DNA from: Catajapyx aquilonaris
Taxonomy: Eukaryota
NCBI GenBank assembly: GCA_000934665.2
Contig: JYFJ02003908.1
Span: 1-36,443, forward strand
DNA: 36,443 nucleotides
Reading direction: 5' to 3'
Part shown: positions 809 through 34,245 of the stretch, one piece after another
Position numbering within the stretch: position 1 is the first letter of the stretch
Layout of the letters: each line of letters starts with the position of its first letter
Notes under the pieces: model-generated
Database searches by the model: none
The model's input: the letters and a program-made list of their open reading frames with translations, nothing else
What the model was told of the DNA's origin: nothing
Position numbers and translations under genes: made by a program

Positions 809-3800
809 CTGCAAGCATACCACCAATCATCAGTACCAATAGTGGAACAATAAGCAGGTCTTAAGAAAGATCAATAAGGGTCACAATGCTTACATAGTGA
901 CATGAATAGCATATAAAAATTATAAGCGACACCAGGTGTAAGAAAAGGTCATACAAAGCAAACACCACATAAAGCAAGACCATCCAAATGCATGCCCTCT
1001 TTGCAACAACATGTGAAAAATATGTACTCACTGTGAATATCAATCAGCAACTTTTGATTCTTGTTGGAGAGGCTGTGAATGAAAACAAAACAATAATTAT
1101 TGGATTATGAGATTATGGATGATATTTTGGTCGTCAGTCCTCCTCACTCTGAACTTACCTTACGCTGGGCCTGCTGTATTTATCCGAACCCAGGGCAACT
1201 GTCACGTCATTCTGGGAAACAATCTTCTTGAGAACCACTTCAGGGACGGGCGAGGCAGTGGCTCCATTCACAGCCTTTCCCAAGGACACTGCCTTGATAA
1301 GGACACTCTCCTCCTTTTCAAACATGTCCCAGAAACGTTCCAACGATATGGAACTCTTCCCGGAAAGCTGGCACTCAATGGCCTGGAGTGGAGCAACAAA
1401 TGCATCAGGTTTGGGCTGAATCAAGGCACAACACTGATAAAGTGCAACTCTGATCGCAATGTGGGCAGTCAAAGCACATTCTTTCCCAGTTTCCAAGTGA
1501 AAATGAACCATGTACAAAAGATCCCATTTCATTACGCTCATTTTTCCCACTAGCAGGGTGCCCAGAATTTCCCTAGATAACCCTAGTTTGTACCTGGACC
1601 TACAGCAACGAATCCATAGGATCTTCCAGGCTAACAGGCAAGTATCAAATGAAGAAATCTTTGCCTCAACACATACTTCAGACAAAAAGGCAATCAAGCA
1701 TTGCATTGCCATCTAACCATCTTGCAAATAGCCGACATTACTCAATACGTGCTCTTCTATTAACTGCACAACAAGACCATTAAAAACGTCTTACCTGTGC
1801 TGGAATGCTGGCGAGTTTACTACCCAATACTGGCAAAGGCCAATTCACAGCAGGGTTAACTGGGTAATCAAGGTCAGCCAGAGAGTAGATGTCATCCAAG
1901 CTGAGATCCAGCCATTCGCCCAAATCCATTGCGAACATGGTGATCTGTGAACATAAAAATATGCAATTTTTAGTACGTGGCTGAGCATCAGCGAAATATT
2001 CACTGCAAGAGATGCTTGCAGCTAATGAAATTAGTCTGTTTTTGTAACTGTGTTGGTATGCAAGCTTCTAAATATCCGGGTAACTCATTCTGTAAGAACT
2101 CTAATTTCCAAATTTTCGTGCATTGAGTGCCAAGCCTGTATAAAACAAAGGTGACCAGCAGCTTTAACGTGGGGTACCTGTCCAGTAGATACAATCAAAA
2201 TTATGCCCATAGTTCAACTTACCTTCCCCGACGCATCTGGGATGGTGGTGGTAGGTGTCACTCGGCATGGCCTGTCTTCTTCATCTTTAGTAGGATAAAA
2301 TGCCAAGTAAACACCCCCCATGGCCACACGGTCCACAGGCTTGGCATTGTCGTCCATTGAGCTGGCAACATAATCCACAAGCATGTCCACATGTGAACTG
2401 AGTTCCCTCAAGGTGCGTACATATATCCGGCCATCGGACTTGGCGTTCAGCAGGATGCACTCTGTCGCATCCTTTGTCTGCAAAATCCACATCAAAAGCA
2501 GCCATTAAAAGGGTGAAGTTGCCAAGGTACGGTTAGGTAAGCCTAAGTTATGCTTAGGTGCTCAGATGAGAGAATCTATTGCCCCATCCTTTTACAGGTG
2601 CATCACAATACTGCAAACTTAAACATTCCACCATTCGGGGCCTTAAATTATGCAGGCTGACTGCATTTCCCTGGTGATGTAATTGAAAATAATAACTTAG
2701 GAGTGAAATTCTCAACTGGAATGTTAGTTCACGAATGTACATTTTCTTTTACATGTAATGACATATTTCGAGCATATTTTATTGCTAATCTGTCCCAAGT
2801 GGCATTGGAAGTCTTAAAAATGGAGAAAACCAAGTGATGAGTAGACCATTTGAATTGGCATGGCATCTTTCTGATCTTCAAAAGCAAAATTAATTAAACA
2901 GGACAATAAAGTATTGTTTGGTTCATGAACACAGCCACATGGACACTGGACCTGGTTCCAGCCAAATAGACTACATGGTTTCTAGGCCCAGTAATTCAAA
3001 CCTCGAGACAAAAGTTGACGACCAATACGTCAACTTGTCATCTGACTGCAAGACCTAAATTGGCTCCTAACTGTTCCTGTATTATTTTAAACCCATGCCA
3101 TGTTTCAAAGTACTGTAATTTACAAGCAAAGGAAAGCCATGGGGTGGGCAAAAACCGCTTATCATTTTTGACATTACTGTCAAAAAACTTTTCCCATAAA
3201 CTTATGCCCAAGTAAGCACCTTCCAATGTACATTACAGAAAATATTCAGCTGGCATTTAAAAAAAAACAAAAAAAAACAACTTTTGCTACAGCTCTTCAC
3301 TTCTTCAAACAATAGTTTTGTTTCCAACTACTGCTAAAATCTTCCAAAAATGTTGCAGATTTTACTACAAATTTGAGGAAGATCTAGACTACAAGCATTA
3401 GTGGGTCATTTTAAGCTGCACCTGTCATCATAAAGTTTTGGTAACAAAACTCAGTGAAATGAAATCCTTTCTGGAGTTACGGATCATGCACTCCTTGCAA
3501 AATTGCAAAATAAAGACAAGTGCAAAACGGTGCCACACAATGTCACACTGATGCGATTACTCATTACTAATAGAGCAATGTTTCAGTGAGAAGAAAAGAG
3601 TGCCTATGTGCAATCCCGTCATCAGTACCTTATAAATAATGTCCCCTACTTTATTAACCATGGAAACGTGACGTGCTTGAAAGTTACCGGAATCGTGCCG
3701 TGGGGTCGTTTAGGACCCCATGCCATATTTTAATTATGATTAATTTTGACGTAATACTTTTCAATGTATTGACTATATGCAATCATTCTTTGAACAACGC

Positions 3801-6800
3801 CTAAAATGATCGCTAATTCAAAATAAACATGCACATCCTGTTATATACTTTTTTTAAATGGCAAACAGTTCATTGCAATTGTAATTTCAATGCATTTTAA
3901 TTCCTTTGGGGTTCTAAAAGACCCCACGCCATGGTTCCAGGGTTAATTGTGTAGGTATTACATGTGACAAATATTCGAGCAACAAAAAAATTAGTTCGCA
4001 ACTACAAGTCAATAAAGTGACAAAATTGCTATGGAATTGCTAAAAACACTTTTGACCAACTGAAGACAAATGGCATGCATTTCACAAGACACCACCAATT
4101 AAAATATTAAAATATATTGAATAGCTACAAGTAAATCTTCATAAGCTACACCACAAGCGCAGTGTCTCATGCTCATGTGAATGCATTTCTTTCCCTTCAT
4201 TGCAAGTGGTTTTTCCTTCTGCTCTTGGACAGGATCCTGTCTGCAGATCAGAATAGGAAAAATCACATTTTGAGGCACTGACCAAGCAAAAATTAAAAAA
4301 ATTAAAAACACCAGATGCAGCATCAGCATCCACTGGATTCATGTGAATGCACCGCAATAATATGTAAATAAAAATGGCAGTAAACCAAGCTACAAGTTTC
4401 ACTCAACAAACTGAACTAATTATTAACCATTGCCTCATATTTACAAGATTGGAATCCATCCTGGTGCAATCCTGAGCCAGCTGCAAGTACACAACACCAT
4501 ATTCTTACACTGTACAAATCTTTACCAAGTAGAAGGCAAGCTATAGCTGACATTGAACACCAGCTTCTTTAAATCTACTCAAATATTGCACCTACTTCAA
4601 CACCTTGAGAAACACACAGCCCTGCTCTATAATGTCCTTATAATATATCAATTAGTTTGCTAATTTGTAAGCAAGTTGAGACTTGCTAATACCAAACATA
4701 CATGAGGGCCATTCACTCACGCCACTAAAATCCCGATCTTCCCCAAGAAGATCATGATTATATTGTGTTTAGATGTGCCATTCCCTTTGCCGATCACGAC
4801 TACAAAGGGTGGTTCTGGGAAACCAAGCTGGTTACCAGGAAACTGATCACGATCCTGACGGCACTCCCAGTCTGGACTAGTTCCTAGCCGAGTTCCTAGC
4901 CAACATGGCGGCTCTCTCCTTGGCCCCTTCTGCCGCCTCGCCCTGGGGGCACAGCCAGGACCTGCGCAGTAACGCAGATAACATGCCTCCATGATATTAG
5001 GGCCAGGCCTATTGTATGGTCACCCACGTTTTTTGCTGTGAGCCGAATCGAGAGTAATTTTTTCGCCAGGCGTGCTTCCACCGCCATCTACCGAAAATCA
5101 CAAAAAGTACGTGACTCGTGTGAACGGTCTTCCCGCGATCATGATTATACCGTCCAGAAATCATGATCTTCTCAGGGCAAACCATGATTTTAGTGGCGTG
5201 TGTGAATGGCCTTATGGTTGTATAGAAATCCTCATCCCTACAAATTTCTTCCGCCATGCTGGTGTTCTATAGATCGGTCGCTATACGTACGCAACCGAGT
5301 GGCCAATTTTATTGCAGGAATTTTATTACAAACTGTATTCCTTCATGTAATAAAATTGGCCACTCGGTTGCGTTCATATAGAGACCGACCTATACTTCCC
5401 CTTCCCTCTGTTGGGTCATTTTGGCATGAATCCTCACCATTTACATCAATTGCAAAGTCACTTCTCTCTCTTCAAAGAACAGCAAGGAAAACATTGCCTT
5501 TGGGACCGAGAGAGAGAGTGAGTTTCAAACTGTCACAAATGTGATGACGTAATATCTGTACAGCCCCTTCGGATTCCAACACAATACAGGGTGGGTAAGA
5601 AGTGGTCACATTCCTAAAGAAAATAATTTCTGAAAGTATTAATAATTACACCTGCTTTTAACAAAATCCCAAAAAGTTTAAATCACTTTCATACATACTG
5701 ATTGTGTGTCTGTATGTGCAATAGAAATGTAAAGTTCAAAAGCAATTTCCAACAAATAATGTGAATTTACTTAATTTCAAATCAACATTCCTCTAAAAGG
5801 CATACATCATACATAAAACCCTGCTGCACTCTACAAGATTTCCCAAAATCAAAATAACTAGATTTATCTTGTATAAGGTCATCATCCCTCATCAAATGCA
5901 TCGCTTGCATTTTCAAAAATATTCTCCAACCACTCTTACCGTAAGAAGGGGATTATGGTCCAATAGTGCAGTCAAGATATCCGTAATAATGTTGCCATTA
6001 ACATGCACATCTTCTGCACCAGATGTATCGATGAGGCTCACGCAGGTGACCTCCTCCTCTTCACTGCCCTCGTTTACAAGATATTCTTCACCTGGCTGAT
6101 GCATAGCTAGCAGACATCGATCCGAGTTGACATATTGATGCAATACAGTTTGCGCAATACTCGAATCTGCAAACCAGGACAGGCCATACAGGTGGAACTT
6201 GACAGCCTGAAAGAATAAGAAACAACACCTTTACTTCAAATTTATTCCTGCAGCACCAATTTCCTCTCAGTTATCATTTATCACTAGGTGCCTGTGGAAG
6301 GCAACAACAGTCCCAAACACATGGGCAGGCAATGTCCCCATCCCTGATGCTAATCATGACGCCACCTGCAGTCACTTGACACCTCCCACTGACTTCAAAC
6401 TTTGAAAATCCTTCTCGGTTTAGAGAGCCCAAACTATTTCACACTTTCACAGGTATGCTTTTTGTACGTCATGCGATGTTTTAAAATTAGTATTTTAAGT
6501 TCAAACTTTTGAGACAGTAGCCCCTGCCGGGAATATCACACACCCTTTGTAATTTTGTTTTAAATTCGGGATCCTTTATGACCTGACATCCTATGGCTAT
6601 GTCACCTCAGGTATTACCTGGTAAGGAAGCTGGAGAAATTTCTTCTGCATCCTCCGCAGTTGCGATACAGAAAACTCCTCTTCCGAACCATGGTCCACCA
6701 GATAGCAGAGGCATTTTACACCGCTTTCCTCCCCTCCATCTTCTCCTTCCCCAACTCGAACGAGAACCACTCTGTAGCAGGTTTGGTCCTCAATAACGAT

Positions 6801-9800
6801 GTATGGGTCATTCTCGACTAATTCTTCCACAGTCAAGGGAACCAAGTACCCGTCATCACCAGTGGCTCCACTTCCTTGCACTGCACCCAGGTAAAACATT
6901 TCCATCTCCGTAATAAGATCGGCACACCTGCAAGAGGACACAAAATGGTAGTGGAAATTCTTGCCATAGGTCAAACTCACATAGGCATTGCATGACCCAT
7001 TCGAGATTAGAACAAGGAAAGAAGTTCAGTAACAATCATGGGGTGCAAAAATTTAGTTTTTGAGCCTACACATCTGAAAGTTTGTTCCCAAGCTTGCAAG
7101 AAACAGCCTTAGAAAGTGAGCGAATGAACCCCATCCACAAGTTCGAGAATTGGCTTCTTTTCTCACTTGTGCTTTTGCTAAGGCCATTTCTTGCAGGTGG
7201 GGAACACAGTCCACCAATAACAATAAATTTATGACGACAACTCCACGAACAGAAGCACTGTCATTCCAAATATTACCTCGGACCTCAGCAGTTTAACTTA
7301 AATGTTGAGATTGATAAGCACATATTCTGTGTTTGTAAAACAATAAGAGCAAAATCATTCCCTTCAGTGAAAAAAAGGGTAGTAAGACCTCCGTGGCAGA
7401 ATGAAAGTACTGAAACAAGGCAGGCGCACGTAAGACCTTCACCAATTGATTTACGTTGCTCCATAGGTCTTACTCAAGCAATTTCCAATTCATGACTCAT
7501 ACAGTCGCTTTTCTGAAAACAATGGGTGGAATAATTTGCATCATACTACTATACGATTGGTGTGAATTTATGCCCATTAAACATTCATGCAGAATTGTCA
7601 CCTCTTTCATATACGGATTTTAACTCCATGTGTAATTTTTGACATGTAGATGTAAATTGGTGAATTTTAGAGGGTGTTTTTCGATTGCGTGCATTTTTAG
7701 GAGAGAAAATTTCCAAGTCTGTGAGGATGGGTTCCGTTTTTTCCGTTTTTTTCCCCTTTCAAAATGAAACCGTTCCCACTGCTCTGAGTAGTTTGCAGTA
7801 GTAATTTTTACAAGCCGCTCCTTACAGTACTTCAGAATTGCTTGAGTAAGACGTATGGTACAGTGTTGGACACATGTCGAGGCATACTGGTAGCGACATT
7901 TTCTGAAGCGGCAGAAGAAGGAATCTTGCTCGTACGGCTTGCAGTATCCTTATCTTTGATTCCTTCTTTTGTGGCTTCGGAAAATGTCGCATGCCGCCAG
8001 TGCCTTGAATGACTCGATTAATGTCCAATTTTGTACAGCTTAAATCAATTGGTGAAGGTCTTACGTGCGCCTGCCTTGTTTCAATAATTTCATCCACCAC
8101 GGAGGTCTTCCTACCCTCTTTTTCACTGAAGGGAATGTTTTTGCTCTTATTTCAGTTCTTTTTAAAACCCCTTTGCTACCAGCTATACCGCCATCACCTA
8201 GATTTTCTCATACGCGTACTGTGAAGATAAGGACAAGATATTTTACAAATAATAACAGATATAGTGCTATATGTATCATATTTACACATTCATGCTCTAT
8301 GGCAGTGTTTCCCAATTTCTTTCGCTGGTGACCCCAAAACATCTTGTAAAATTTGCGATCCCCTATATGTGCACATTTTGATCCGCCAACGTGAAAAGAC
8401 AGGTAAACAGTGAAATGACCTTACCTTATGGTCATGAACTCATGATTGTCAAGATAGATAGCATCATTTTGTGACAATAATTTGTTACCCTCCATCCTGA
8501 CCCCAAATATTATTTGACCCACAATTTGGGAAGCACTGCTCTACGGTCTACACTACGAATGTGTCGGAGATGATATTCCTTGTCTAGAAGTCCCCAAAAT
8601 AATTTCCATAAAGATCAACGTAAAAAAACGAAATTAGAGTGCTATCGGCCAACTGTTACGTCTGATTTAATTATGAAATAGCCACGTTAAAATCTACGGA
8701 ATATCTACCTTGCGAACAGGGTCAGACGAATTTGCTGAAATCGTGGTACTTTGCGAGAATTAAATCAATACTTATCTGCGGTTGCCTCCGTCACATCTGA
8801 AATCATCCTAACTTATTTAATTCTTGTGAAATACAACGATTTCAGCACATTTGTCTGACATGGTTCTCAAGGTAGGTATTCCGCATGTTGTTTCATAATT
8901 AAATTTCAGAATTAAATCAGCTAAACAGTTCGCAAGTACTACCCAAAGTTAGAGTTTTTACGGTGATCTTATATCCGTAAGTATAGCTGTTATTATTGTT
9001 TTGAAAAAATTTCTTGTCCTTCACAGTACTCTCCAATTCACATAAGAGTGAACCTTCTTCAATATGCATACGCCCGAGGGGTCGGTGAGCCGCCCGAAAG
9101 TAGTGCCCAACATGCCGGGCCCTCCTGTTCTTCACAACAAAATGTGCCGTTTGTGTAGCGCTGCAGCTCCCGCATGGGCTGCCTATGATAATTAGGCATT
9201 CGAATTACATGTACCAGCACTGTTTCTCCAAGAAAGCCATAGATACCGGGGACTAATTTTGAGGCGCGGCAGCTCACTGACCCCTCGGCGTATGGGTATC
9301 CAAAAAGGTTCACACTTATGTGAATCGGAGTGTATGTGTAAGCGAAAATCTAGCCGATGGCGATATAGCAGATAGCGAAGGGGTTAATAGTACAGTTGAA
9401 TCCAGCTGTAACCGACTTCCTGAGATCGTGGAAAAAAGTCTGTTATAACGAGGTCTGTTGTAGCCATATCATCACTTTTGCAATGAAAACAAAACTCATT
9501 TGAATGTAACTGAACCTCCAAATTTCGACTCACTTGTCATTGTGATCCTTCCCAACGAATCGGATTGCAACCTCACACCCACTGATCATCTCAGTAATTA
9601 ACACGTCGTATGCAGAATCCAATGTATCACTGGGTGGTGGAAGTTCCAGTTGAGGTGGAAACTGGTCATTAGCAGCTGCCTCACCACTTCCATGGTCTGG
9701 CTCACCACTTATGCCATGGTCTGGCTCACCACTTATGCCATGGTCTGGCTCACCACTTATGCCATGGTCTGGCTCACTACTACCTTCTTGGTCGTGGGGG

Positions 9801-12800
9801 ATGTAGGTGATGATGTAAAGGTTAGAAGCTCCTGTGATGACGCTGAAGTCAGAGGATTCGCTTATCACATCCATCCAGTTTTCCGGAAGTTCCTCCTTGA
9901 ACATATCAGCATAATCTCGCTCCAGATTGTCTTTGAACACTCCTCTGCTATGCTTAGAGAGCAGAGATTTCAGCTGTGCAAGGAGGAGCACTGTGGTGGA
10001 TGTCTTAGGAAGAACAGATGCCCCGGAATATGAAACATTCCCAGTCACAGACGAGGAAGATGCAGCAAGAATCCTCTTCTTGGTTCCCTCCATTGCTCTC
10101 TGGCAGGCCACTACTTCTGCTTCGTCACATGAGGTGAACTCCTGCTCTCCATATGAAGTGTACTTCTCGCCACCTACTGTCACCACCGTCAAGTACCTGA
10201 ATGAAAAATTCAATTAATGCAGATATCTCCATCTGCTCTCAAGAACTGCAAGAGCAAAATTAGTGATGATTATCATCACAAAGGCACATCTGCAGAGGTT
10301 TTGAAATCATTCCTCGATTGTTACATGCTGCCTGACCAGTGTGGACTCTGGTTCCAACTTGACCTTGCTATGTGGGGATGAACTGCCACTATGAATATAA
10401 AGTGGGACTCAACCCCTTCTCAACTGGGGGTCAACCCTGACACCACATTCTAAAATCCATTATGTATACATGCGTAAACACCTGCTAGCAAGAGGCAATG
10501 CTCCCGAAACACACATGGAGTTAAGACCTTAAAACCAGACACACAGCAATGCGTGATTTCAAGGTATTGCCAAGATAAACATGGGAGGGCCTTGAAGTTA
10601 CATGCATATATTTCTCCCTCAATCCATCATTTCATCTCAGCCTGAATACAACAACAACAACATACTTTGGATTACGGCCCTTGATGTGCTTGACGACCAC
10701 TTCTCCAAGATCGTACTTTCGGGCATGGGCCACCAGAATGGCCTTTGCAGAGGTGCCCATGATGGCTTCAGCAGGGGTGTCTACAACCCTCTTGATCAGA
10801 GTAGTGGTCTCCGGAAAGGAATTAGGCAGAGCATTTGAACTGCCAGCTGAGTCAGCAGGTGTCCTGACACTGTTCGACACTGAGCCAACAGTAAAGCTCT
10901 TAGGGATGGCAGGGGTGGGAGCTGGGATCTGAGCAGGAGGGATGAACTGAGGCATGGCACTTTGGTTCTGGACTGGGGCAATGGATGACTTTTGGTTAGT
11001 GGTAGAACGAGGCATCTGGTGAGGCATCCGGGGAAGAGCTTGCATACTGGTGGGTTGTGCACTAGGTACAATTTTAGGATAGATAACTGCTTCCTCCTTA
11101 GCAGGAACCGATTTCTGACCTATCTCCACCCTGCCTAACCCTCCATTCATCTGAGCAGGAGTGATGCCATTTTTAAAAGTGGTCACCTGTCGAGGCTCCT
11201 CTTCCCCTCTGCCAGTAAAGGTCACCTGAAATAGATACGACACCTCTCATCAGACAAGATTGCAGTGCTACACTGAACTCCTATAAGACATGTCCAATTA
11301 CTGTAGGTTCATTGGAAGACTGAAGCACTTGACAAAATATTTGCAAATTAATAATCACTTGCAAGTGGATATGCAAGGTGGCCTGCATTTTCTAATTTGA
11401 CAGTGCCTGGGATAAGTTTTTTTTAAACCTTCAAATGCATGTTGATTTTTTCTATGCACAGTGCAGTGTTGGACATTAATCGAGTCATACTGCAAACGAC
11501 ATTTTCCGATGCGGCAGAAGAACGAATCTTGCTCGCATTGCTTGCACTATCCACATCTTCAATTCATTCTTCTGCCGCTTCGGAAAATGTCGCTAGCAGT
11601 ATGACTCGATTATGTCCAACACGGTACATCATAATATGCATGATGGCATGAAATGATTTTAGAGGAAAAATTCAGTTTATCTGGAGAATGTAGCCATTGT
11701 GGAATAAACTGCACAGGCCACAGTGACTCAGGATGCAATTAATCTCGTTTCTCTGTTAAGCTTCCATCTGAAAACAGTCAATAAAAACCCCAAAAAAACT
11801 TTCCATAACTGGGAGTCCTTTTGGCATACGTTGAAATGCAGGTCAGGACACCACAACTGACACACTTTTGACAGCAACCATCGCTCCATGAATAACTAGA
11901 CACCAACATATCTAGTTCTTTTGATTCTCTAAGGCGGACTGCTGTTTTCTTGTGCTTGGGAGTCTTTGTGGCAGGAGGGAGGCAGTAGGGGTAATAGTGT
12001 GGTGTGATGGGGAGGTGGTCTAGTGTGATTGGCGGAGCAGGACTAAGAATAAATCCCCCTCACACTACTGTATACCATAGGCTATGTAGAATGTACCAAT
12101 ATACAGTATAATGTAGCAATGGCCAGGGCTGAGCTCACCCTAAAATCTCCCCGCACGGCTTCCGCGGCTCGGGAAGAAACTCCTCCCCAAGCACCATTTC
12201 TAGAGGGGACATCATTTCTAGAGGGGACATCATTGCCACGAGAGCTATCACCCCAGGCACCAGCTGCACTCCACGAACTTCCTCTCTCTTGCATGTAGCT
12301 TTGTCCTGCTTGGGGACCCCATTTGTTTTTCTGAAGCCTTGGTGGCAACGAAGAAGTTGCCTGTCTCTGGTAGGATCCCCTACTGAAGGAAAATCCCCCT
12401 CTTCCGCCTCTCCCACGGGAGAATCCACTTCCCCCTCTCTTGTGTGCAGGAAATCTGATTGAAGGTGGCTTGTACGCCCTTCCTTTGGCCCTGCTGCGGC
12501 TGCTGGTCTTGCTACGGGCGACCAAGTCAACAATGTGCTGAGTGGACTCGTCTTGCACGGCGGTTACCATGTCCCCTCTTACCCTGAACATGTTGGGGTG
12601 CTTCCCCAGCATGTCCTGGACAGACGTGTAGCCAAACCGTGAGAAAGGAACATGCCGGCCTTCCATCGCCCTGAATTCTCCTGTAAGAGTCAAGAGATTA
12701 TTGAGCACAGTTGTGGCCTTAAGCATACCTTGTTATTTATGAACTTAAATCTGCATCAATTCAGAATTTATTGGTATTTGCACAAGTCCAATTTTTTTTT

Positions 12801-20977: not shown

Positions 20978-21163
20978 AAAACATGCAATCAAGCTGCGAT
21001 TTTGCATACAAGTGGATAGGTCAAGTCTAACAAAGGGTACAAGATTTGGGGTCTCCATTTCAAATAGCATATGCACACTGCTAATTATTTGCACTAGTTC
21101 CTAACAAAGCAATGTATATGTTAGGCTCAAACCCCGAAAACAGCCATTGCGCGAAAAAACCGT

Positions 21164-21490
21164 CCATTCTGCAGAATGATCTGTGCCAAACTATCCATTC
21201 TGCAGAATGATCTGTGCCAAACCATCCATTCTGCAGAATGATCTGTGCCAAACTATCCATTCTGCAGAATGATCTGTGCCAAACCATCCATTCTGCAGAA
21301 TGATCTGTGCCAAACCATCCATTCTGCAGAATGGATGGCGCATTCTGCAGAATGCTCCATGTCAAACCGTCCATTCTGCAGAATGCTCATTGTCCAACCA
21401 TCCATTCTGCAGAATGGACGGTTTGACATGGAGCATTGTGCAGAATGGATGTTTTAAACAGTATTAAACCGTCCATTCTGCAGAATGGAC
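21164..21490. repeat. 31-bp minisatellite built on the palindrome CATTCTGCAGAATG
   Basis: Five near-exact units ccattctgcagaatgatctgtgccaaac(t/c)at plus variant units; mirrored with fewer units at ~22967-23175. Confidence 0.9.
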
Positions 21491-21873
21491 GGTTTAATGA
21501 AACGGCCAGAGCCCGAAATGCTCTTTTTAAGGCCAGAACGCTTTCCTGGGCGAAACTTACACGTCAGGACTCCAATTTCGTGTCGGGATGGCTGGTTTAG
21601 AAGACGCCCATAACTCGTTGTGGCAGTTTCCTATTTCCCACTGTGCCATGTAGAAGCTGGAAATAAATCACCCTATTGTTGTTTGGCAAATGGTTGAAAT
21701 ACTTAGCATTTGATGCTGCTGTTTATTTTCCAGGAACTATTACCTCCAAATATTTATTACCATTATTACTAGTACATCATTTCCAAGAACTGTGTTAGGC
21801 CTACCTCCAAATATTTATAACCATTATTACTAGTACATCTTCTTCCAGGAACTCCTACCCTTCAATTATTAGT

Positions 21874-22140
21874 CTATTTGTTTTTGCAGGCACTGTTCGG
21901 ATGACACTTAGAATTGCACTTAATATTGCTTGATCGACATTTACATTTCTCATCAGTGCAGTACTTTTTGCAACTGCAACTTATGAATCCCTGCTTACTA
22001 CCTGAACTTAGAGCTGAAGCCGATCGAAGAGATACAGAACTGGTGGAAGGAACTTCGTTCAGATCTATAAAATTGGAATCAGCAGGTGTGAACTCATTGC
22101 GAGCATACAGCCTCTCTAAAATGCCTTCTTTCGTGCCCAA
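21874..22140 (-). pseudogene. C-terminal fragment of a KRBA2/Ginger2-type integrase
   Basis: GTKEGILERLYARNEF...QGFISCSCKKYCTDEKCKCRSSNIKCNSKCHPNSACKNK*; no N-terminal DDE core. Confidence 0.75.
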
Positions 22141-23945
22141 TTGGTAGAGTTAGAGGTGGCAGCACCCACCTTCATTGACTGTCTCTCCACAGCATGTGAT
22201 AACATGCTTCGCCTAAACGCAACAAATGCCCCTTAAAGGGCCGCGTGAAAAGTGCTATCTGTTTCAAAACAGCAACTTGTCCATCACTGCAGGAAGTTTA
22301 TCCTCCCTCGTCCCTCCTGAAAATTAAAAGGTAGTGGAAAGTTCGAGAGAGCAGGGATTCGTAAGTCGCAGTTGCAAAAAGTACTACATTGATCAGAAAT
22401 GTAAATGTCGTTCAAAGTAATACTAAATGTAATTCTGTGTGACTAAGTGTTAGAACGCTAGAGGCGGATTCCAAGGTCCCCTAAGTCCATATTCAAAAAA
22501 ATGAGCTGAGGACATACAGTATATTGGTAGCTTATGGTACTCCCCACCTCCTCCTGAGGTCAGAATACACCAAATGTCTCTAGGTCCAAGCACGAAAATC
22601 GGAGGATTTTTCCAAAGCCATATAAGCCCATATATACTTTATGACAAAAAAAAACTCAAATCTCAACAGGACACAAATGGACCTAGGGGACATTGGAATT
22701 CCGCCTCTTCTGATGAAGGTAAGAGTTCCGGGAAAATAAACAGCAGCATCAAATGTTAAGTATTTCAACCATTTGCCAAACAACAATAGGGTGATTTATT
22801 TCCAGCTTCTACATGGCACAGTGGGAAACAGGAAACTGCCACAACGAGTTATGGGCGTCTTCTAAACCAGCCATCCCGACACGAAATTGGAGTCCTGACG
22901 TGTAAGTTTCGCCCAGGAAAGCGTTCTGGCCTTAAAAAGAGCATTTCGGGCTCTGGCCGTTTCATACCGTCCATTCTGCAGAATGGACGGTTTAAAACTG
23001 TTTAAAACATCCATTCTGCACAATGCTCCATGTCAAACCGTCCATTCTGCAGAATGGATGGTTGTACAATGAGCATTCTGCAGAATGGACGGTTTGACAA
23101 GGAGCATTCTGCAGAATGCGCCATCCATTCTGCAGAATGGATGGTTTGGCACAGATCATTCTGCAGAATGGACGGTTTTTTCGTGCAATGGCCGTTTTCG
23201 GGGTTTGAGCCTAACATATACACTACTGGAAAAAATTGAATTCCCTAAATTTTTATTTTTTGGCAGTGTTGGTGTTACCTGGTAATCATAAACATTTAGG
23301 GAATGCAATTTTTGTCCTATAGTGTACCCTACTTCAAATGGCGCCTGCTGGACAGCCATAGAAGGTGACAGTCACTCGACTAGGGAAGTTCTTTTACAGA
23401 TCATGTCATTTTTTGCTCTGTGTATGCTGTAATATGACATAAATGACTACTTATCCCTCTTCTTTACGTGTCCACTTGAGCGGCCTGGTAATGTGGTAAA
23501 CAAAACTATGGAGAACATATTGCTACACTTACACCAACGGTCTCTTCCCCATCCCACCGCCAGGCTGACACTTGCGTGAAAATCTATCGTTCTGGCGTAT
23601 ACGACTGAACAGGAAATGCATGTTCACCCCTATGCTGGCCGACCTTTTGGCAGATTATCAAAAAACGTCATAAAGCAATTCAGATTATTTTGTCGCTTAC
23701 GACCCCTTGGCGGAACAGTAGCGATATGTGCTTAGATTCCACAATATTCAAGATTTGAAAATCACATCTCCGCTTTTCTGTGGAACCGTTCTAAAATCAA
23801 ATTAAAGTTCCCTTGTCATATGCAGCCTATGTTGTGATAAAATGGCCTGGGCATGACACACAATAGTGTAGTGCAGTGCCTTCTACTTTCCCTAGAGCAG
23901 TGCTTTGCAAATTTGGGGCTACAGACATAATACAAGGGCAAATCA

Positions 23946-24203
23946 AGGGCGACACCCGGTGGCCGAGTGGTTAGCGGCGCAGCCTTCCACCTCTAAGGTC
24001 CCGAGTTCGATCCCCGGGTCGGACGGAGGTTACTTATGTGGATAGAGTTTCGATGGGTTCTCTCCGTGTTCGCGTGGGTTTTCTCGGGGTTCTCCCGTTT
24101 CCTCCCACTATCAAAATCCATCACATTTCAGGCAAATGATTAAAGTCGGTTATTCAAAAGATGATCCCCTAAGAGGCCCAAGGAGGCTTATCACGGGGTA
24201 TCA

Positions 24204-24259
<56 letters not shown>
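23946..24259 (+). mobile_element. tRNA-derived SINE, same family
   Basis: 15-bp TSD tacaagggcaaatca at 23931-23945 and 24260-24274; (TTA)n tail. Confidence 0.9.
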
Positions 24260-24262
<3 letters not shown>

Positions 24263-24339
24263 AAGGGCAAATCATAAAGAAACGCACATATATATTTTTC
24301 CCAGCCAAATTTAAAACAAAATTAATAGGTGACAGCAAG

Positions 24340-25201
24340 GGGCAGGCAAGCACGCTGTGCACTGAACCCGCCATTTTTTTCCCCCTACGACCTTCCCACC
24401 ACCTGCGGCCATGTGGCGATAAGGGCCTACCCAAAGGCCTACCCGCGGGGCCCCGCGACGTGTACGGGTTCCCCTTCACCCGCAGGACTCTCCCAACGTG
24501 CCACTGAGCTTACCTGTCCCCAAAAAAAGGCAGTCTCAACGCGTCGGGATGACCCAAAAAGGGGCTGATCTTGTGCCCTTTGCCTGCCTTTGCGGCCAAA
24601 TGTTCGGATGAAGAAGAACAGCAAACGACCAGCCGCCGACAGAGATTACAGAATGATGACGCGCAGCATAGAGCAGGCCGCGCCGAATGGCTTTATTGGA
24701 AATCCTCCACGTTCCAATCAGCCCTACTGCCTGTCCCCTCCACGCCGCGATCCACAACAATCGATCCAACTTGCAGCTCATTATAATCCTCGAATTTAAA
24801 ACAGTGACGCAAAAACCGGCTCAATAATAATTGTTGTCGGATTGTTGCATTTATAATTCATTTTTTTCTTTAAAAGTGATTGTTGGAGTGTGCGTGCCTA
24901 CTCCCCGTGGCGGTGTTGCCAAGGATACCAAGCGCAAGGTTCAAAACTGATTCGAATCGAAGGGTCAGCTTGGAAGGGGTCACTGCTCTCAACTCGATCG
25001 GAACTGACCTCGTCGTACACCGGCCGGCCGGACACCCTCTCCTCGGATAACACCAAAAGTGTGAGCATAATTGGCTTATTATAATTAAAATTATTATTAC
25101 GACGCAGTGCGTTCGAATGGCGGCGTTCCATTTGCAGCGCCCGGATGGAACACACGTTCGAAGTGGTATGGCTGACCATGTTATCTCTCTCTTCCCCACA
25201 G
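24340..25201 (+). promoter_or_regulatory. CpG-rich candidate promoter / 5' UTR region of the PABP-derived gene
   Basis: High CpG density; ATTGG/CCAAT pair at ~24696-24718; candidate donor gtgagc at 25061; branch-like ctgac at ~25172; polypyrimidine acceptor at 25201. Confidence 0.35.
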
Positions 25202-25232
25202 CTGCTTGAAGAGATAGGTCCTAATAAGAAGA

Positions 25233-25910
25233 ATGGCAGGCGGGATACAGCAGGAGCTGGCAAATGCTGCTGAGCGGATGAAGGCTGACTTTGCAAACCG
25301 CTACAGGGGGGTCAACCTCTATGTGAAGAACCTGCACGACTCCATTGACGACGAGCACCTCAGAATGGTCTTTGCCCCGTTTGGCACCATCACTTCCGCC
25401 AAGGTCATAACCGAGGAGGGTCACTCCAAGGGTTTCGGCTTCGTCTGCTACTCCTCGCCAGACGAGGCCCTAAAGGCTATCGTTGAGATGAACGGACGCA
25501 TTGTGGCCACCAAGCCCCTGTACGTGAACCTGGCCCAGAGCAAGGAATATCGCCAGGCCTATTTGGCCAAGTTGCGCAATCAGCGAATGGCCACCGTACC
25601 ACAGGAGCCGACAGACCAGTACAGTCGCACCAGCTACTTTACGCCACCCATGACCATGCCAGAAGGGGCTCAGACATGGGCCACTCCACCTCGCTTTCCT
25701 GCTCGGGCTATCCGCGGACCACAGGCAGTCACCAAAGCTACAGGTCAGGCATTGTGTTCAGATTTCTGGAGCGTACCAGACCAGTTTAACACTAGCCACA
25801 TGCTCCAACCACAGCTCAGGTTGGTCCCGTCAACACCGCCTTCTCTACCCACCACGTCACTGGGCGCCAGCCGGTGGGGGAAACTTCCATGGCTCGTGAC
25901 CAGCCCATGA
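25233..25910 (+). CDS. Single-RRM PABP-derived protein (inverted partial duplicate of PABPC exons 4-5); expressed gene or pseudogene
   Basis: 225-aa ORF; RRM matches parental RRM4 at 63/77 residues by eye with RNP1/RNP2 intact; upstream acceptor ctcttccccacag ending at 25201; start context aagaATGG; AATAAA at 26126. Confidence 0.75.
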
Positions 25911-26125
25911 AAGACGGGCGGGCTGCTGTGCCGAGTGGCGCTTATTATTGGAAGTAGGCAGCGGATGAAGACAAGTTGGCCCCTCGGGATGCGTGACTGG
26001 AGCGGGTGGAAGGATGAGATCCAGAGTGAAGCATTATTGGAAACAAGTTTATTCATTCCTTTCTTCTCTTTTATGTAATTTGTTTATCTTTTAAGAAAAC
26101 CGCCTTGTTTGCAACATGCATGTTA

Positions 26126-26131
26126 AATAAA
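26126..26131 (+). terminator. Polyadenylation signal of the PABP-derived gene
   Basis: AATAAA ~215 nt after the stop codon, followed by a U-rich tract. Confidence 0.55.
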
Positions 26132-26353
26132 TTTAACTTTTTCTCATTCAGACTTTAAAATAATATGGCTCTGCACTTAATTCTGTCCACGATAACACAG
26201 GGTGTCTAGCAAACCCAAGGAAAAAAAAAATCCCTGACATTTCCACGTTTCCCAGTGCTAATATGACCGAATTTCCCTGATTCGCATGGCTTGTATTAGT
26301 ATAGTCAATAAGTTCCCGTCCCGGCTGGCTGGAGGCCGACAGGTGACACAGAG

Positions 26354-27085
26354 AGGTGCTGCTGTGGTCATTGGCTGTGAGGTACATTAGCAGTCACCAA
26401 TCTGGCCAAGAGTGAACTCGGTGTGCTGCGTAATAGCTGCGGTACACAGTCGAAAAATGTCGTTCACCATATCAGGCGCGTCCAAGGCGGATGAACGGGC
26501 AGTAATTCAGTTCCTGTGTGCAGAGGGAGCGGGACCGAAGGAGATTCATACACGCATGGGGGCAGTGTATGGAGACACTTGCGTGGCGTACTCGACAGTG
26601 AAGGACGGGGGACGCCATTTCCGCAGTGGTCGACAAGGCGCTTGTCCATCGACAGGATTGCTGAGCAGACTTGCATTGTTGGAGGCGGTAACAGGTCGGC
26701 CTGACCGTGCCATGTCCGACGTGCCTTGTCGACCACTGCGGAAATGGCGTACCCAGTCCTTCACAGTCGAGTACGCCACGCAAGTGTCTCCATACACAGC
26801 CCCCATGCGTGTTTGAATCTCCTTCGGTCCCGCTCCCTCTGCACACAGGAATTCTACTGCCCGTTCTTCCGCCTTGGACGCGCCTGATATGGTGAACGAC
26901 ATTTTTCGACTGTGTACCGCAGCTATTACGCAGCCCACGGAGTTCACTCTTGGCCAGATTAGTGACTGCTAATGTACCTCACAGCCAACCACAGCAGCAC
27001 CTGTGCAATGTGTATTGACGATTGTTCACACCAAAGATGCAAGCAGTTTGGTGCAAATTGCCAGAAAGAGTTGTAATGTGACTCG
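26354..27085. mobile_element. Fold-back (inverted duplication) of mariner-family transposase 5' fragments
   Basis: Arms 26354-26639 and 26723-27002 are near-identical reverse complements. Each encodes a Mos1/SETMAR-like HTH (RAVIQFLCAEG..EIHTRMGAVYGD..YSTVKDWVRHFRSGR); the right copy continues to RSGRP. A TA-CGAG mariner-like terminus lies at 27085 on the minus strand. Confidence 0.85.
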
Positions 27086-27186
27086 TAGAGCCTAAACCTA
27101 CAGAAAGAGCCCTGGAACCCCAGTAGGGCCGAACTCCAACCCGAGGTGGAGCTGGTGGCTGGCACACTGTTACCGATTCCTCATTA

Positions 27187-27284
27187 AGGCCCATTCACAC
27201 AGGCCGCCGATGGTTTTTGTCTTTGGTCCGCAGCGTCAACGCGACCAAAGACCAAAACCGTCGGCGGCCTGTGTGAATGGGCCT
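27187..27284. mobile_element. Palindromic MITE, PIF/Harbinger-like termini
   Basis: aggcccattcacacaggccgccga ... tcggcggcctgtgtgaatgggcct. Confidence 0.7.
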
Positions 27285-27572
27285 TCAGGCACAATTCCAG
27301 ACTGGCAAAGGAAATTCCCTGGTTTTCCATGTTGCTCGACACCCTGTAACAATACTGGACTCTTCCCATTATGGCAAGATCCCATGCACAATGAAAGAGT
27401 CGCTCAGGTCCACGAAAAACCTCCTCAATAGCGGCCAGGCCAGCAGGAGCCGATGGAAGCTTGCGTGAATGGACTCATGCGTGCTTCCATCCGCACCCTA
27501 GATGCTGCTGAAACAAGACCTCAGTGGCACACAAACTCAATGAAAACAAGAGCATTGCACTGGCTGATAAGC

Positions 27573-27578
27573 TTTAAT
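27573..27578 (-). terminator. Probable PABPC polyadenylation signal (ATTAAA)
   Basis: ATTAAA on the minus strand at the end of a ~1.4-kb A-rich 3' UTR, followed by GU/U-rich sequence (tcttgttttcattgagtttgtgtg). Confidence 0.55.
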
Positions 27579-28977
27579 TCCGTATATCCAATTACAACTG
27601 CAACCATGAACATTTTTTTTTTTTTCTCTCCAAACTCATACAATAAGGGGCGATGCAAGAGAACCCTAAGAACCCAAATCACAAAAAAACAAAACTGATA
27701 AATGGAAGTGGGGTTAAAACAATTTCATCTCCCGCAACATCCACTGAAAATAATAAAAAATTAAATGACTTCACCAAAGATACTTATCCCAGCCCCGGTA
27801 TTTCAATTTTTTCGTGTTTTTCTGGGTATGTTATTTTTCTTGTTTGCAATTTTTTTTTCCTTCTCTACCGTTTTCCATTCTGTAACTTGGGCAACATTTT
27901 CTTCAAGTGTCCCCGACGACTCCTACTCTCACAGATGCAAGTTACCAGTTTTTTTTTCCCCATCACTTCACGGGTTTTTCAGTAATTTTTCATTTTAGGC
28001 AATTCTGATGGTGAAAAAAATGTAAAAAAATCGTATTAGATTTTTTTTTGGACTTTACGTTTGTTTTTCAATTTTTGTTGTATTTACTGTTATTTAAAAC
28101 TGTTTCATCTTTTTGGGGGTAATTTTTCTCTCTATTCTGGTCCATTGGAATTTCTTTCATCTTTCTTTTTTTTTTTTCAAAGGCAGTTGGTGGATAATCG
28201 TGAGACAATCCCAACTTACATCTGAAATTATTATTATTTTTTTGTGGCATTTTAACTTTTAGTAAAATGTTTCCTTTTTTTGGAAAATTTTATGCAACTG
28301 TTATGGGTGTTCTTTGTAGTTTTTTTGGTGTAATTTTTTTGAAGCCTTTTCTGTGTACATTTTTTTTTTTTCGAGCCCCACTGTCAACCACCTTCCAGGT
28401 GGACTTCTAGGAAGGGGGGAGGGGGGAAATTCTTAACCCTATCAAAGGACAAAATAATAGTGTAGAGAACAAAAACAAAAGAAGAGCTGTCATTACTGTA
28501 AGTTTTTTGTGGTTTATCGCTTTGACATTTTGCGATTTTTTTGTTGTGAACTTTTCTTTGTTATATCTTTTGTAACGCTTGGTCATTATTTTTCATTTTT
28601 TTTTGTTTTTCCTCTTTGCCCTAACCCTTTTCAAAGCCTGCCCCAACGTTACTGTGTGCTCTTATGCCACTTTCTTTCTGAGCACATGAATCATGTGTAT
28701 GGGGGAGCCGTGCTATTATTTAGCACGCAGGAGAGACTTGAGAAACAAGAGGGCACGAACCCAACAAATAAGAAACTAAACTGAAGAATGAAATCTGGGA
28801 AAAGGTGCTAACCTCACAGACCACTGGGTTGTGTGCTTTGGGGAAGGGAACGACGAGGGTGTGTGTATGTGTGTTTGCGTCTCTGGGTAGGTGGTGGAAT
28901 GTGAGGGATGGGGGAATGGGAAGAATGGGACAGGTGCAGTGGGGAGGAAGTTGCCTAGCCTTTTCCCCGCCCTCGCC

Positions 28978-34245
<5,268 letters not shown>

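Follow-up and report, generated by a model that had tools for sequence, protein, structure and literature searches.

PABPC is a core, highly conserved factor in which RRM1-2 provide high-affinity poly(A) binding and eIF4G binding, the MLLE domain binds PAM2 partners and RRM4 binds RNA with low specificity. In the Catajapyx aquilonaris genome, an open reading frame (ORF) resembling only part of PABPC was found near a complete PABPC gene in the window analysed here, positions 1 to 36,443 of contig JYFJ02003908.1. This raises the question of whether the partial copy is a gene in its own right or the remains of a duplication. In the reading that we prefer, with a probability of roughly 0.6, inverted duplication of part of PABPC gave rise to a lineage-specific gene, kept by selection, that encodes a stand-alone RRM4 and a basic linker helix. 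The features of the locus are listed in Table 1.

Table 1. Features of the PABPC copy and of its parent gene (positions in the window)
Feature	Position	Strand	Details
Exon 1, 5' UTR	24951..25060	+	minimal extent, contig starts at 24951
Intron A, 141 nt, GT..AG	25061..25201	+	contig joint 25060 to 25202
Exon 2, from parent exon 4	25202..25743	+	CDS start ATG at 25233
RRM fold, from PABPC RRM4	25311..25532	+	residues 27-100; Pfam, AF2 model and best fold match
Predicted basic helix right after the RRM	25542..25592	+	residues 104-120; homolog of the PABP 'linker helix'
P-R-F in place of P-R-W	25689..25697	+	residues 153-155
Intron B, 71 nt, GT..AG	25744..25814	+	contig joint 25739 to 25811, cut +4
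Exon 3, derived from parent exon 5 as far as roughly the stop codon	25815..26104	+	3' UTR after TAG at 25955-25957; contig ends at 26104
Candidate poly(A) signal AATAAA	26126..26131	+	beyond contig end at 26104
Parent PABPC gene	27555..34239	-	start codon at 34239; four RRMs, linker, MLLE; stop codon at 28978-28980
Source segment in parent	31365..32550	-	exon 4 32550..31974, intron 4 31973..31651, exon 5 31650 to ~31365

Origin of the copy

The ORF was compared with the window using tblastn, and its best match, with 104 of 181 residues identical (E value 3e-56), was to the PABPC gene on the minus strand (32502..31960). As the matches to RRM3 (41/94 identical) and RRM2 (30/63 identical) were weaker, RRM4 is the source domain of the copy. 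At the DNA level, positions 25296-25568 were 81.3% identical to 32454-32182 over 273 nt without a gap, and positions 25801-25909 were 71% identical to sequence in exon 5 of the parent (31610-31502). These matches agree with a previous reading made from the sequence only, in which the homology was limited to exons 4-5 of PABPC. The spliced coding sequence of the copy could be aligned in frame with that of the parent over residues 5-209, and two derived states are common to both, namely D77, a site with E in 23 of 23 outgroups, and the S-M-A of residues 195-197, which is absent elsewhere. The in-frame alignment to exons 4-5 and the common derived residues place the copy in the line of descent of PABPC. 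The convergent arrangement that had been described was also recovered, with the copy on the plus strand and the parent on the minus strand, separated by 5.5 kb and in inverted order. The 3' UTR of the parent ends at a poly(A) site at ~27555, where a poly-T loose end was found 18 nt past an ATTAAA.

An RNA-mediated origin, in which a partly spliced PABPC transcript gave rise to a processed retrocopy, would fit with the loss from the copy of ~305 nt of the 323-nt intron 4 of the parent. It would also fit with the 300 nt upstream of the copy, which were no more similar to intron 3 of the parent than expected from shuffled sequences (score 18; shuffled mean 17.5). However, the donor of intron B is a GT at exactly the position of the intron-4 donor in the parent and is used in the RNA, and the 18 nt between the two exon homologies start with GTCAG and finish with TTCAG, like the two ends of the intron. 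The functional acceptor before 25202 is at most 6 nt from the position of the parent exon-4 acceptor (25 versus 31 nt before the same anchor), and it is not preceded by exon-3 sequence. Splicing of the copy still takes place at the donor and acceptor positions of the parent, the homologous region is not followed by a poly(A) tract, and the parent is only 5.5 kb away in inverted order. These are not the properties of a processed retrogene, and this origin is considered improbable. The 3' UTR of the copy likewise gave no homology signal against the sequence downstream of exon 5 in the parent (score 18; shuffled mean 17.5). An alignment of ~30 nt before the acceptor, made by eye and considered as a candidate for parental homology, was rejected as not significant because the score of 18 for the upstream 300 nt is at the level of the shuffles.

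Judged from its sequence, the copy is a DNA-level inverted duplicate of the exon 4-5 region of PABPC. Approximately 1.1 kb of the neighbouring gene, from the exon-4 acceptor through exon 4 and intron 4 to a point roughly two thirds into exon 5, would have been duplicated and inverted at the DNA level, and the copy would have acquired both a new first exon, which is non-coding, and a new start codon. Most of intron 4 would then have been deleted in the copy, with the acceptor moved to an in-phase AG within the former exon 5. Protein alignment suggests that a point mutation within the conserved codons for Y-K-Y gave rise to the stop codon.

Transcript structure and protein product

A contig of 942 letters was found to match the window with 0 mismatches, joining 24951-25060, 25202-25743 and 25815-26104 via two GT..AG introns. 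This is a single contig from one public run (X1) of unrecorded kind, with no strand or tissue information, and the RNA nature of the run was deduced from the behaviour of its contigs. The depth in this run was 0 in intergenic bins and 3,600-11,700 on the 3' UTR of the parent, and it was this run that contained the poly-T loose end past the parental ATTAAA. Contigs cannot prove absence, and positions 24308-24950, 26105 onward and 26414-26881 are without contig cover. The junction into 25202, which the sequence-only reading had proposed as a test, is present in the contig, confirming that the copy has its own splice acceptor and that this is used. The AATAAA that it had pointed out is present as a candidate signal.

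Exon 1 had no significant DNA match to the parent, contains no ATG and includes stops in the CDS frame. The first 18 nt of intron B resemble the two ends of the 323-nt intron 4 of the parent, and the remaining 53 nt are former exon-5 sequence with a 2-nt deletion. The AG used as the acceptor of intron B is also present in exon 5 of the parent, in a compatible phase.

In the genomic sequence, a plus-strand frame is open from 25218 to 25910, and the ATG at 25233 predicts 225 aa, which had been taken to be the product. This open frame exists, but the RNA contig encodes 217 aa (25233-25743 plus 25815-25957, with TAG at 25955-25957) via the second intron. As splicing of intron B removes the 2-nt frameshift and restores the ancestral frame, it is the 217-aa protein that is the predicted product, and the earlier model, which missed this intron, has an incorrect C-terminus. 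In the 225-aa ORF, the final 55 residues are intron read-through followed by a frame-shifted read, a warning for annotation in that the longest genomic ORF differs from the product. The TAG aligns with a conserved Tyr (Y-K-Y) in the parent and the outgroups. All five coding indels (-3, -6, -2, -18 and +1 aa) are in frame, and the sole 2-nt indel is inside the spliced-out intron. An A at -3 and a G at +4 flank the start codon, and no ATG precedes it in the 5' UTR as far as this is known; the ATG context noted previously is upheld.

The RRM and the linker helix

The only Pfam family identified in the ORF was RRM_1 (PF00076; residues 29-96, E value 1.9e-18), with 66.5 bits against a cut-off of 20.7 and a match to positions 1-69 of the 70 in the profile. 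An AF2 model (pLDDT ~90) predicted the order beta-alpha-beta-beta-alpha-beta (E27-34, H40-50, E53-59, E67-73, H76-86 and E97-100), and the top Foldseek match was RRM4 of PABPC3 (2d9p; E value 1e-9, 76% identity). When the RRM was compared with those of Pab1 (6r5k), RRM4 scored 117 bits, against 49 for RRM3, 47 for RRM2 and 20 for RRM1.

The RRM of the copy is identical to that of the parent at 63 of 79 aligned residues, close to the 63/77 (~82%) counted by eye beforehand, and the linker, which had been called far more diverged, is identical at 29 of 66. The claim of intact RNP motifs holds for RNP2 (LYVKNL), which is the same as in the parent, but RNP1 includes one conservative change of the final F to Y; the RNP aromatics Y30, F68 and F70 are retained. 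Fifteen changes in the RRM are specific to the copy, with six in the two helices, six in loops and three in strands. The copy had also been credited with residues of other animal PABPs at two sites where the parent differs. This is correct for the P in FAPFG, which is found in 17 of 23 arthropod outgroups, the S of the parent being derived, but not for the A in IVATKP, which must be a change on the branch of the copy as it occurs in 0 of the 23 (G in 17).

The predicted linker helix differs from that of the parent at eight of 17 residues, and five basic residues are kept. Further along, the W of P-R-W, present in the parent and in 23/23 arthropod outgroups, is replaced by F. The parent has four tandem RRMs and the copy has one; no match to PF00658 (MLLE/PABC) was found in the copy, and its CDS stops within the linker derived from exon 5. 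RRM1-2 and the MLLE are thus missing, as had been stated. The product of 217 aa would consist of the RRM3-RRM4 connector helix, an intact RRM4, the basic linker helix and ~95 disordered residues of the proximal linker.

Selection and age

Comparison of the RRM with that of the parent gave a dN of 0.130, a dS of 0.607 and a dN/dS of 0.21 (NG86; 0.13-0.25 by other methods), a deficit of non-synonymous relative to synonymous differences (Fisher p 3.4e-6). Non-synonymous differences were fewer in the RRM than in the linker plus tail (odds ratio 0.30, p 2.5e-6), with no such contrast for synonymous differences (p 0.60), and flanks that are invariant in 23 other arthropods had a dN ~3.5 times that of the RRM at a similar dS; the dN of the 45 ungapped flanking codons was 0.48. 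Selection on the RRM had been proposed from the sequence and is supported by these values, as is the old age of the inverted partial duplicate by the high synonymous divergence from the parent (dS 0.6-0.8).

Gene conversion was considered as the main cause of the better-kept RRM and was rejected because synonymous differences were alike in the RRM and the flanks (p 0.43-0.60). The dS of the short flanks, which include few sites, was ~1.0-1.2 versus 0.6 in the RRM, and given this higher value some past conversion of the RRM is conceivable.

Using protein outgroups, 15 of 16 replacements in the RRM were placed on the branch of the copy, where 15 of 79 RRM residues have changed, most of them at sites invariant in 23 arthropods. 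With the polarity taken from protein outgroups only, the copy-branch dN/dS of the RRM was ~0.2-0.4 depending on how dS is split, and ~0.4 with an equal split; for the linker and tail the ratio on this branch was near 1. In neutral simulations, the probability that no stop would appear in 203 codons was 0.010-0.015 at a neutral d of 0.25-0.30, and for the linker and tail alone the probability of an open frame under neutral change was 0.07-0.14. The pattern suggests that the RRM has been kept by purifying selection, itself relaxed, and that the remainder of the protein evolves almost freely but stays in frame.

Present status of the locus

As an old copy is transcribed, spliced and has a well-kept RRM, it is best regarded as a young lineage-specific gene and not as wreckage, and probably as a protein-coding gene under selection. 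The open frame, the in-frame coding indels and the RNA junction into 25202 speak against a dead pseudogene, as had been anticipated.

A lesser but real possibility is that the copy is a transcribed relic, once useful or constrained and now a decaying, weakly transcribed pseudogene in which the spliced frame has yet to be disabled. The many replacements at otherwise invariant RRM sites, the near-neutral amino acid evolution of the linker and the 2-nt deletion in the genomic ORF all fit with decay. However, a frame of 217 codons would have remained open with a probability of only ~0.01 if evolution had been neutral throughout, every coding indel is in frame, the RNP motifs are intact apart from the conservative F to Y change in RNP1, accurate splicing restores the frame, and the ATG is in a good context with no ATG upstream. 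Recent loss of constraint and ongoing weak constraint are indistinguishable with these data.

A relic would also fit with the searches for relatives, as no ortholog of the copy was found among the 120 listed of 1,027 protein matches of similar length; the ten examined from these 120 were all fragments of ordinary PABPs with RRM3 and RRM4. Ten words specific to the copy were searched for in 240 proteins. Seven were absent from all of them, one was found in three proteins and two were found in one protein each, and no protein carried more than one word. The best protein match of the parent itself was only 89%, suggesting that the protein database is without close relatives. A literature search of limited coverage found no description of a stand-alone RRM4-type PABP paralog.

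It is very improbable that the locus acts as RNA, either as a non-coding transcript or by giving rise, as hairpin or antisense RNA, to small RNAs directed against the parent. Inverted duplicates near their parent can be a source of such small RNAs, the longest word that the copy shares exactly with the parent is 22 nt, and hpRNA loci of such design have been reported in Drosophila (PMC10317233). However, the long and highly complementary arms in one RNA that define a hairpin-RNA (endo-siRNA) locus were not found, as the two arms share only 81% identity over 273 nt, with lower values elsewhere, and the transcript is spliced and sense to the ORF of the copy. The depth was 0 in bins 26414-26881 between the copy and the poly(A) site of the parent, where contigs cannot prove absence, and a role as RNA only would leave unexplained the excess of synonymous change, relative to non-synonymous change, in the RRM. 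No Rfam match was found in the whole window.

That a plus-strand gene located upstream has a longer transcript in which the RRM ORF is no more than 3' UTR is hardly credible: exon 1 is open in frame 2, which would end at 25271-25273, and the 5' end of the contig need not be the transcript start, but no contig is found on 24308-24950, where the depth is fully explained by the 942-letter contig, the upstream part of the window yielded no plus-strand coding gene that matched a family, the upstream neighbour, which has Tudor and OST-HTH matches, is encoded on the minus strand, and selection on the RRM would have no explanation.

Predicted function and significance

If the copy is read as a protein-coding gene, its RNP surface, which is conserved, would bind RNA with the low specificity that RRM4 has. 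Without RRM1-2 and MLLE, the protein would be unable to recruit eIF4G or PAM2 partners. The copy corresponds precisely to the 'elongated RRM4' that packs against RRM1-2 of the next PABP on a poly(A) tail, and it may therefore compete at, or cap, PABP-PABP interfaces, though on present analysis this role is unlikely. A more specific proposal, and a slightly more doubtful one, is that the copy, with its RRM4, basic linker helix and proximal linker, may be a free-standing half of the PABP-PABP oligomerisation interface, serving as a chain-capper or decoy of natural origin on poly(A) tails and altering PABP spacing and the reading of tail length by Pan2-Pan3. A chain-capper would be located on RRM1-2 of bound PABPC, or on the junction of the 3' UTR and poly(A), and would have its effect in some tissue of the lineage.

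A natural gene that has kept only the RRM4 module in the long term (dS 0.6-0.8) would reveal the role of RRM4 alone, and the copy could be a lineage-specific regulator of poly(A) RNPs. RRM4 has been reported to be essential in human cells, with the Tyr of RNP2 needed, and the RRM4 of PABPC1 to be replaceable by RRM1, 2 or 3 (bioRxiv 10.64898/2026.06.05.728833). The locus also illustrates the birth of a gene in compact form, with partial inverted duplication, a new first exon, a new start codon and intron collapse. The shift of the acceptor, which turned 53 nt of exon into intron and bypassed the frameshift, is a further step of this kind.

Comparison with known systems

The mammalian neuPABP (PABPC1L2A/B) is a truncated PABPC paralog that lacks the MLLE and eIF4G binding. 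Formerly a putative pseudogene, it has conserved RRMs and is expressed, and its proposed role is to keep hold of mRNAs while the usual partners are not recruited (PMC10546976). Like neuPABP as described there, the copy is short, derived from PABPC and without an MLLE. However, the module kept in neuPABP is RRM1-2, with its high affinity for poly(A), and the protein has no linker, whereas the copy keeps RRM4, the linker helix and the proximal linker. The reported neuPABP gene is also intronless and conserved across mammals, whereas the copy includes parental introns, is located beside its parent and has no known ortholog.

In yeast Pab1, RRM4 and the linker helix ('elongated RRM4') are reported to pack on RRM1-2 of the next Pab1, forming the contact between neighbouring PABPs that is read by deadenylases (PMC6547884). 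The copy similarly encodes an RRM4 with a predicted helix of five basic residues directly after it. However, the module in Pab1 and PABPC is tethered to RRM1-3 and is in cis on the same tail, whereas that of the copy stands alone and, unlike the module in PABPC, has the altered linker helix described above.

In human PABPC1, a linker motif at residues 428-442 that includes W437 is reported to bind RRM2 of a neighbouring molecule (PMC5780489). A homologous P-R-[W/F]-P-A stretch is kept in frame in the copy, with Phe where the human motif, the parent and all 23 arthropod outgroups have Trp, and the arthropod P-R-W motif is presumably the equivalent of the human W437 motif.

New genes formed by partial or tandem duplication have been described in Drosophila (PMC4069613, PMC4889967), and the copy resembles these cases in being a partial duplicate that adjoins its parent, has recruited new 5' sequence and forms a shorter gene. 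It differs from the cases described there in being a single case in inverted order that involves a core translation factor, and in having an intron that has shrunk and a shifted acceptor that rescues the frame.

Relationship of the copy to the PABPC gene

The plus-strand copy was found in an open frame (25218–25910) in which the ATG at 25233 begins a genomic ORF of 225 aa, and RRM_1 was the sole Pfam family detected (E 1.9e-18). Its best relative inside the window was the convergent minus-strand PABPC gene, the parent, which codes for four RRMs, a linker and an MLLE domain, and whose exon 4 shares 85–89% identity with insect PABPs, ~80% with decapod PABPs and 83% with a centipede PABP; these identities mark the window as arthropod DNA. 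The homology to exons 4 and 5 of this neighbour proposed in the sequence-only reading was borne out, as 104 of 181 residues are identical to parent RRM4 and its adjoining linker (E 3e-56), with RRM3 and RRM2 much poorer matches. At the DNA level, 25296–25568 and 32454–32182 share 81.3% identity over 273 gapless nt, and 25801–25909 shares 71% identity with parent exon 5.

Parent exon 5 also includes an Ala/Gln/Gly-rich linker insertion of ~30–40 residues that is missing from the copy and from 23 of 23 arthropod outgroups, and is therefore a lineage-specific low-complexity expansion. Two short N runs mark assembly gaps, the second of which (~34500) sits in the parent 5' region, so the 5' UTR and promoter are interrupted and unreadable across it.

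Coordinates of the copy, its parent and neighbouring features
Feature	Position	Strand	Remark
ORFs with Tudor and LOTUS matches	6597–12732	minus	
N run	~18550		
31-nt tandem array	21157–21418		8.7 copies
Skipping joint	22309–22531		221 nt
31-nt tandem array	23043–23118		2.5 copies
Contig-rich region with (ATT)19	23840–24307		
Blocks of 942-letter contig	24951–25060, 25202–25739, 25811–26104	plus	
Copy, spliced CDS	25233–25743, 25815–25957	plus	217 codons
Copy, intron B	25744–25814	plus	71 nt, allowing for 4-nt joint ambiguity
Inverted-repeat arms	26354–26600, 26762–27002		94% identical
Parent gene	34239–27555	minus	
Parent 3' UTR	27555–28977	minus	~1.4 kb
Parent insertion in exon 5	31250–31500	minus	
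Parent exon 5	starts 31650	minus	
Parent intron 4	31973–31651	minus	323 nt
Parent exon 4	32550–31974	minus	
N run	~34500		

Transcription and splicing

X1, the sole public sequencing run covering the stretch, is of unrecorded kind, and its RNA character was judged from the pattern of its contigs on 21500–28500. Depth was 0 in several intergenic bins and 3,600–11,700 over the parent 3' UTR, and at the parent poly(A) site (27555), 18 nt past a minus-strand ATTAAA, a contig ends in a 25-letter poly-T loose end. By this pattern, X1 behaves as RNA.

One contig (942 letters, depth 24.8) was placed on the copy gapless and with zero mismatches, in three blocks joined at two GT..AG joints; the contigs carry no strand, end or level information, and an unspliced isoform is compatible with them. 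The ends of both introns fit the plus strand only. The first joint (25060 to 25202) provides the anticipated junction into 25202 and adds a new first exon that is non-homologous to the parent.

The frame of the 225-aa product originally suggested is open at the genomic level, but intron B is spliced out in this contig, giving the shorter CDS in the table. Relative to the parent, the genomic ORF has a 2-nt deletion near 25800, and its final ~37 codons lie outside the ancestral frame. Intron B removes this deletion within 53 nt of former exon 5, together with an 18-nt intron remnant, and the AG used as its acceptor is also present in parent exon 5, in a phase suited to the phase-1 donor. Over residues 5 to 209 the spliced CDS and the parent align in the same frame, and in the multiple alignment the frame runs on to a stop aligned with the second Tyr of the conserved Y-K-Y. 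In-frame stops lie upstream of ATG 25233, and no ATG was found in the known 5' UTR.

Many RNA contigs (summed depth 300–430, numerous mismatches and loose ends) fall on the region containing the (ATT)19 microsatellite, 650 nt upstream of exon 1, which is probably an expressed dispersed repeat. The GT..AG skipping joint comes from a single contig of depth 8.7, which has just 30 letters on its shorter side; it may reflect either repeat-related sequence or, upstream of the copy, a further spliced plus-strand transcript. The unit of the 31-nt arrays has a palindromic core (CATTCTGCAGAATG), and these could be satellite or MITE remains. Minus-strand ORFs further upstream matched Tudor at 24.2 bits (cut-off 23) and, under the cut-off of 23.8, OST-HTH/LOTUS at 20.6 bits; this neighbour is probably a germline-type Tudor/LOTUS gene, TDRD5/7-like.

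Selection on the copy

Nei–Gojobori dN and dS were calculated for the copy versus the parent, and the conserved RRM and more diverged linker perceived earlier were recovered.

Divergence of the copy from its parent
Region	Codons	dN	dS	dN/dS
RRM	25–103	0.130	0.607	0.21
Linker	104–170	0.457	0.761	0.60
Tail	171–209	0.345	0.697	0.50

Within the RRM, nonsynonymous differences (21.5/180.5 sites) are far rarer than synonymous ones (23.5/56.5; p 3.4e-6). They are also rarer there than in linker and tail (odds ratio 0.30, p 2.5e-6), while synonymous differences are alike (p 0.60). The contrast persists against the 45 ungapped codons immediately beside the RRM (dN 0.48), whose invariance in other arthropods equals that of the RRM. 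Changes were polarised using 23 arthropod PABPs out of 24 sequences retrieved, with the mollusc row omitted. This assigned 15 of 16 RRM differences to the copy's branch and one to the parent's, and 27 linker differences to the copy and none to the parent, with 10 ambiguous. Given an equal split of synonymous change, the copy-branch ratio would be ~0.4 in the RRM and ~1 in the linker. Under neutral substitution from the parental sequence (d = 0.25–0.30), 203 codons stayed stop-free in 1.0–1.5% of trials, and linker and tail alone in 11–14%. All five coding indels in the copy are multiples of three. Taken together, these results suggest that the RRM and frame have been under lasting constraint, and the linker residues under little. 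That the copy is instead a relic, its constraint lost only recently, is rather unlikely.

Origin of the copy

Exon-4 homology in the copy is closed by a GT exactly at the parental donor position, and exon-5 homology resumes after 18 nt with an intron-like start and end. The acceptor before 25202 lies 25 nt from the first anchored homology, versus 31 nt in the parent, and neither exon-3 sequence nor a poly(A) remnant was found around the copy's homology. From these features the copy is concluded to have arisen when ~1.1 kb of DNA was duplicated in inverted orientation, after which ~305 nt within intron 4 were lost. Retroposition, which the retained donor, the intron-like remnant and the missing exon 3 and poly(A) remnant all speak against, is quite improbable. 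Homology past both ends of the segment was no better than in shuffled controls, placing the breakpoints close to the acceptor and to the stop codon.

Copy and parent share D77, which is E in 23 of 23 outgroups, and S-M-A at 195–197, and the S in the parent's F-A-S-F-G postdates their split, indicating that the duplication occurred within this lineage with this PABPC gene as its source. The proposed inverted partial duplication beside the parent was upheld, as was, among arthropods, the reading of the P in FAPFG as a residue that the copy shares with other animal PABPs.

Both arms of the inverted repeat between the convergent genes contain ORFs matching Mos1/mariner HTH_48 (E 3e-3 and 4e-5, neither scoring above the Pfam cut-off). 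They are mariner-like transposon fragments and, as they lie near the duplication, could have mediated it.

A role of the copy as RNA alone or as a hairpin is very unlikely, as the 81% arm identity is a poor fit and such a role is at odds with the codon-level pattern; that it is merely the 3' UTR of an upstream gene, for which the X1 contigs give no support, is scarcely credible.

Predicted structure and possible role

Structure prediction with 26 aligned sequences was run on P0001, the translated genomic ORF, the last 55 residues of which differ from the true tail of the spliced product. The model has a helix (3–23), a canonical RRM (27–100, pLDDT ~90), a second helix (104–120) and disorder from 128 on, and its best solved-structure match was PABPC3 RRM4 (2d9p). 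Against yeast Pab1, the RRM4 domain scored 117 bits and other RRMs at most 49. The RNP motifs, previously described as intact, are so for RNP2, which is unchanged, but RNP1 has one change, F to Y. The 15 copy-specific RRM changes comprise six in the domain's own two helices, six in loops and three in strands.

RRM4 is reported to be essential in human cells, with the RNP2 Tyr required (bioRxiv 10.64898/2026.06.05.728833), and the copy retains this Tyr (Y30). The affinity of RRM3-4 for poly(A) is described as similar to that for A/U-rich RNA (PMC10546976). Yeast Pab1 RRM4 and a basic 'linker helix' are described as packing against RRM1-2 of the next protomer, an interface read by Pan2-Pan3 (PMC6547884), and in human PABPC1 a linker stretch near W437 reportedly binds the neighbour's RRM2 (PMC5780489). 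The copy's linker helix has five basic residues and 8 of 17 residues altered, and F stands in place of the linker-motif Trp. Our best guess is that the putative product would be a weakly specific RNA binder, devoid of effector-recruiting parts, which may compete at PABP–PABP interfaces.

Genes that began as partial duplicates are common. No stand-alone RRM4-linker paralog of PABP was found in the literature searched, and no protein resembling the copy's product was present among 240 retrieved proteins. Truncated PABPC paralogs are already known, such as neuPABP, which is described as keeping RRM1-2 only (PMC10546976), whereas the copy keeps RRM4 and linker.
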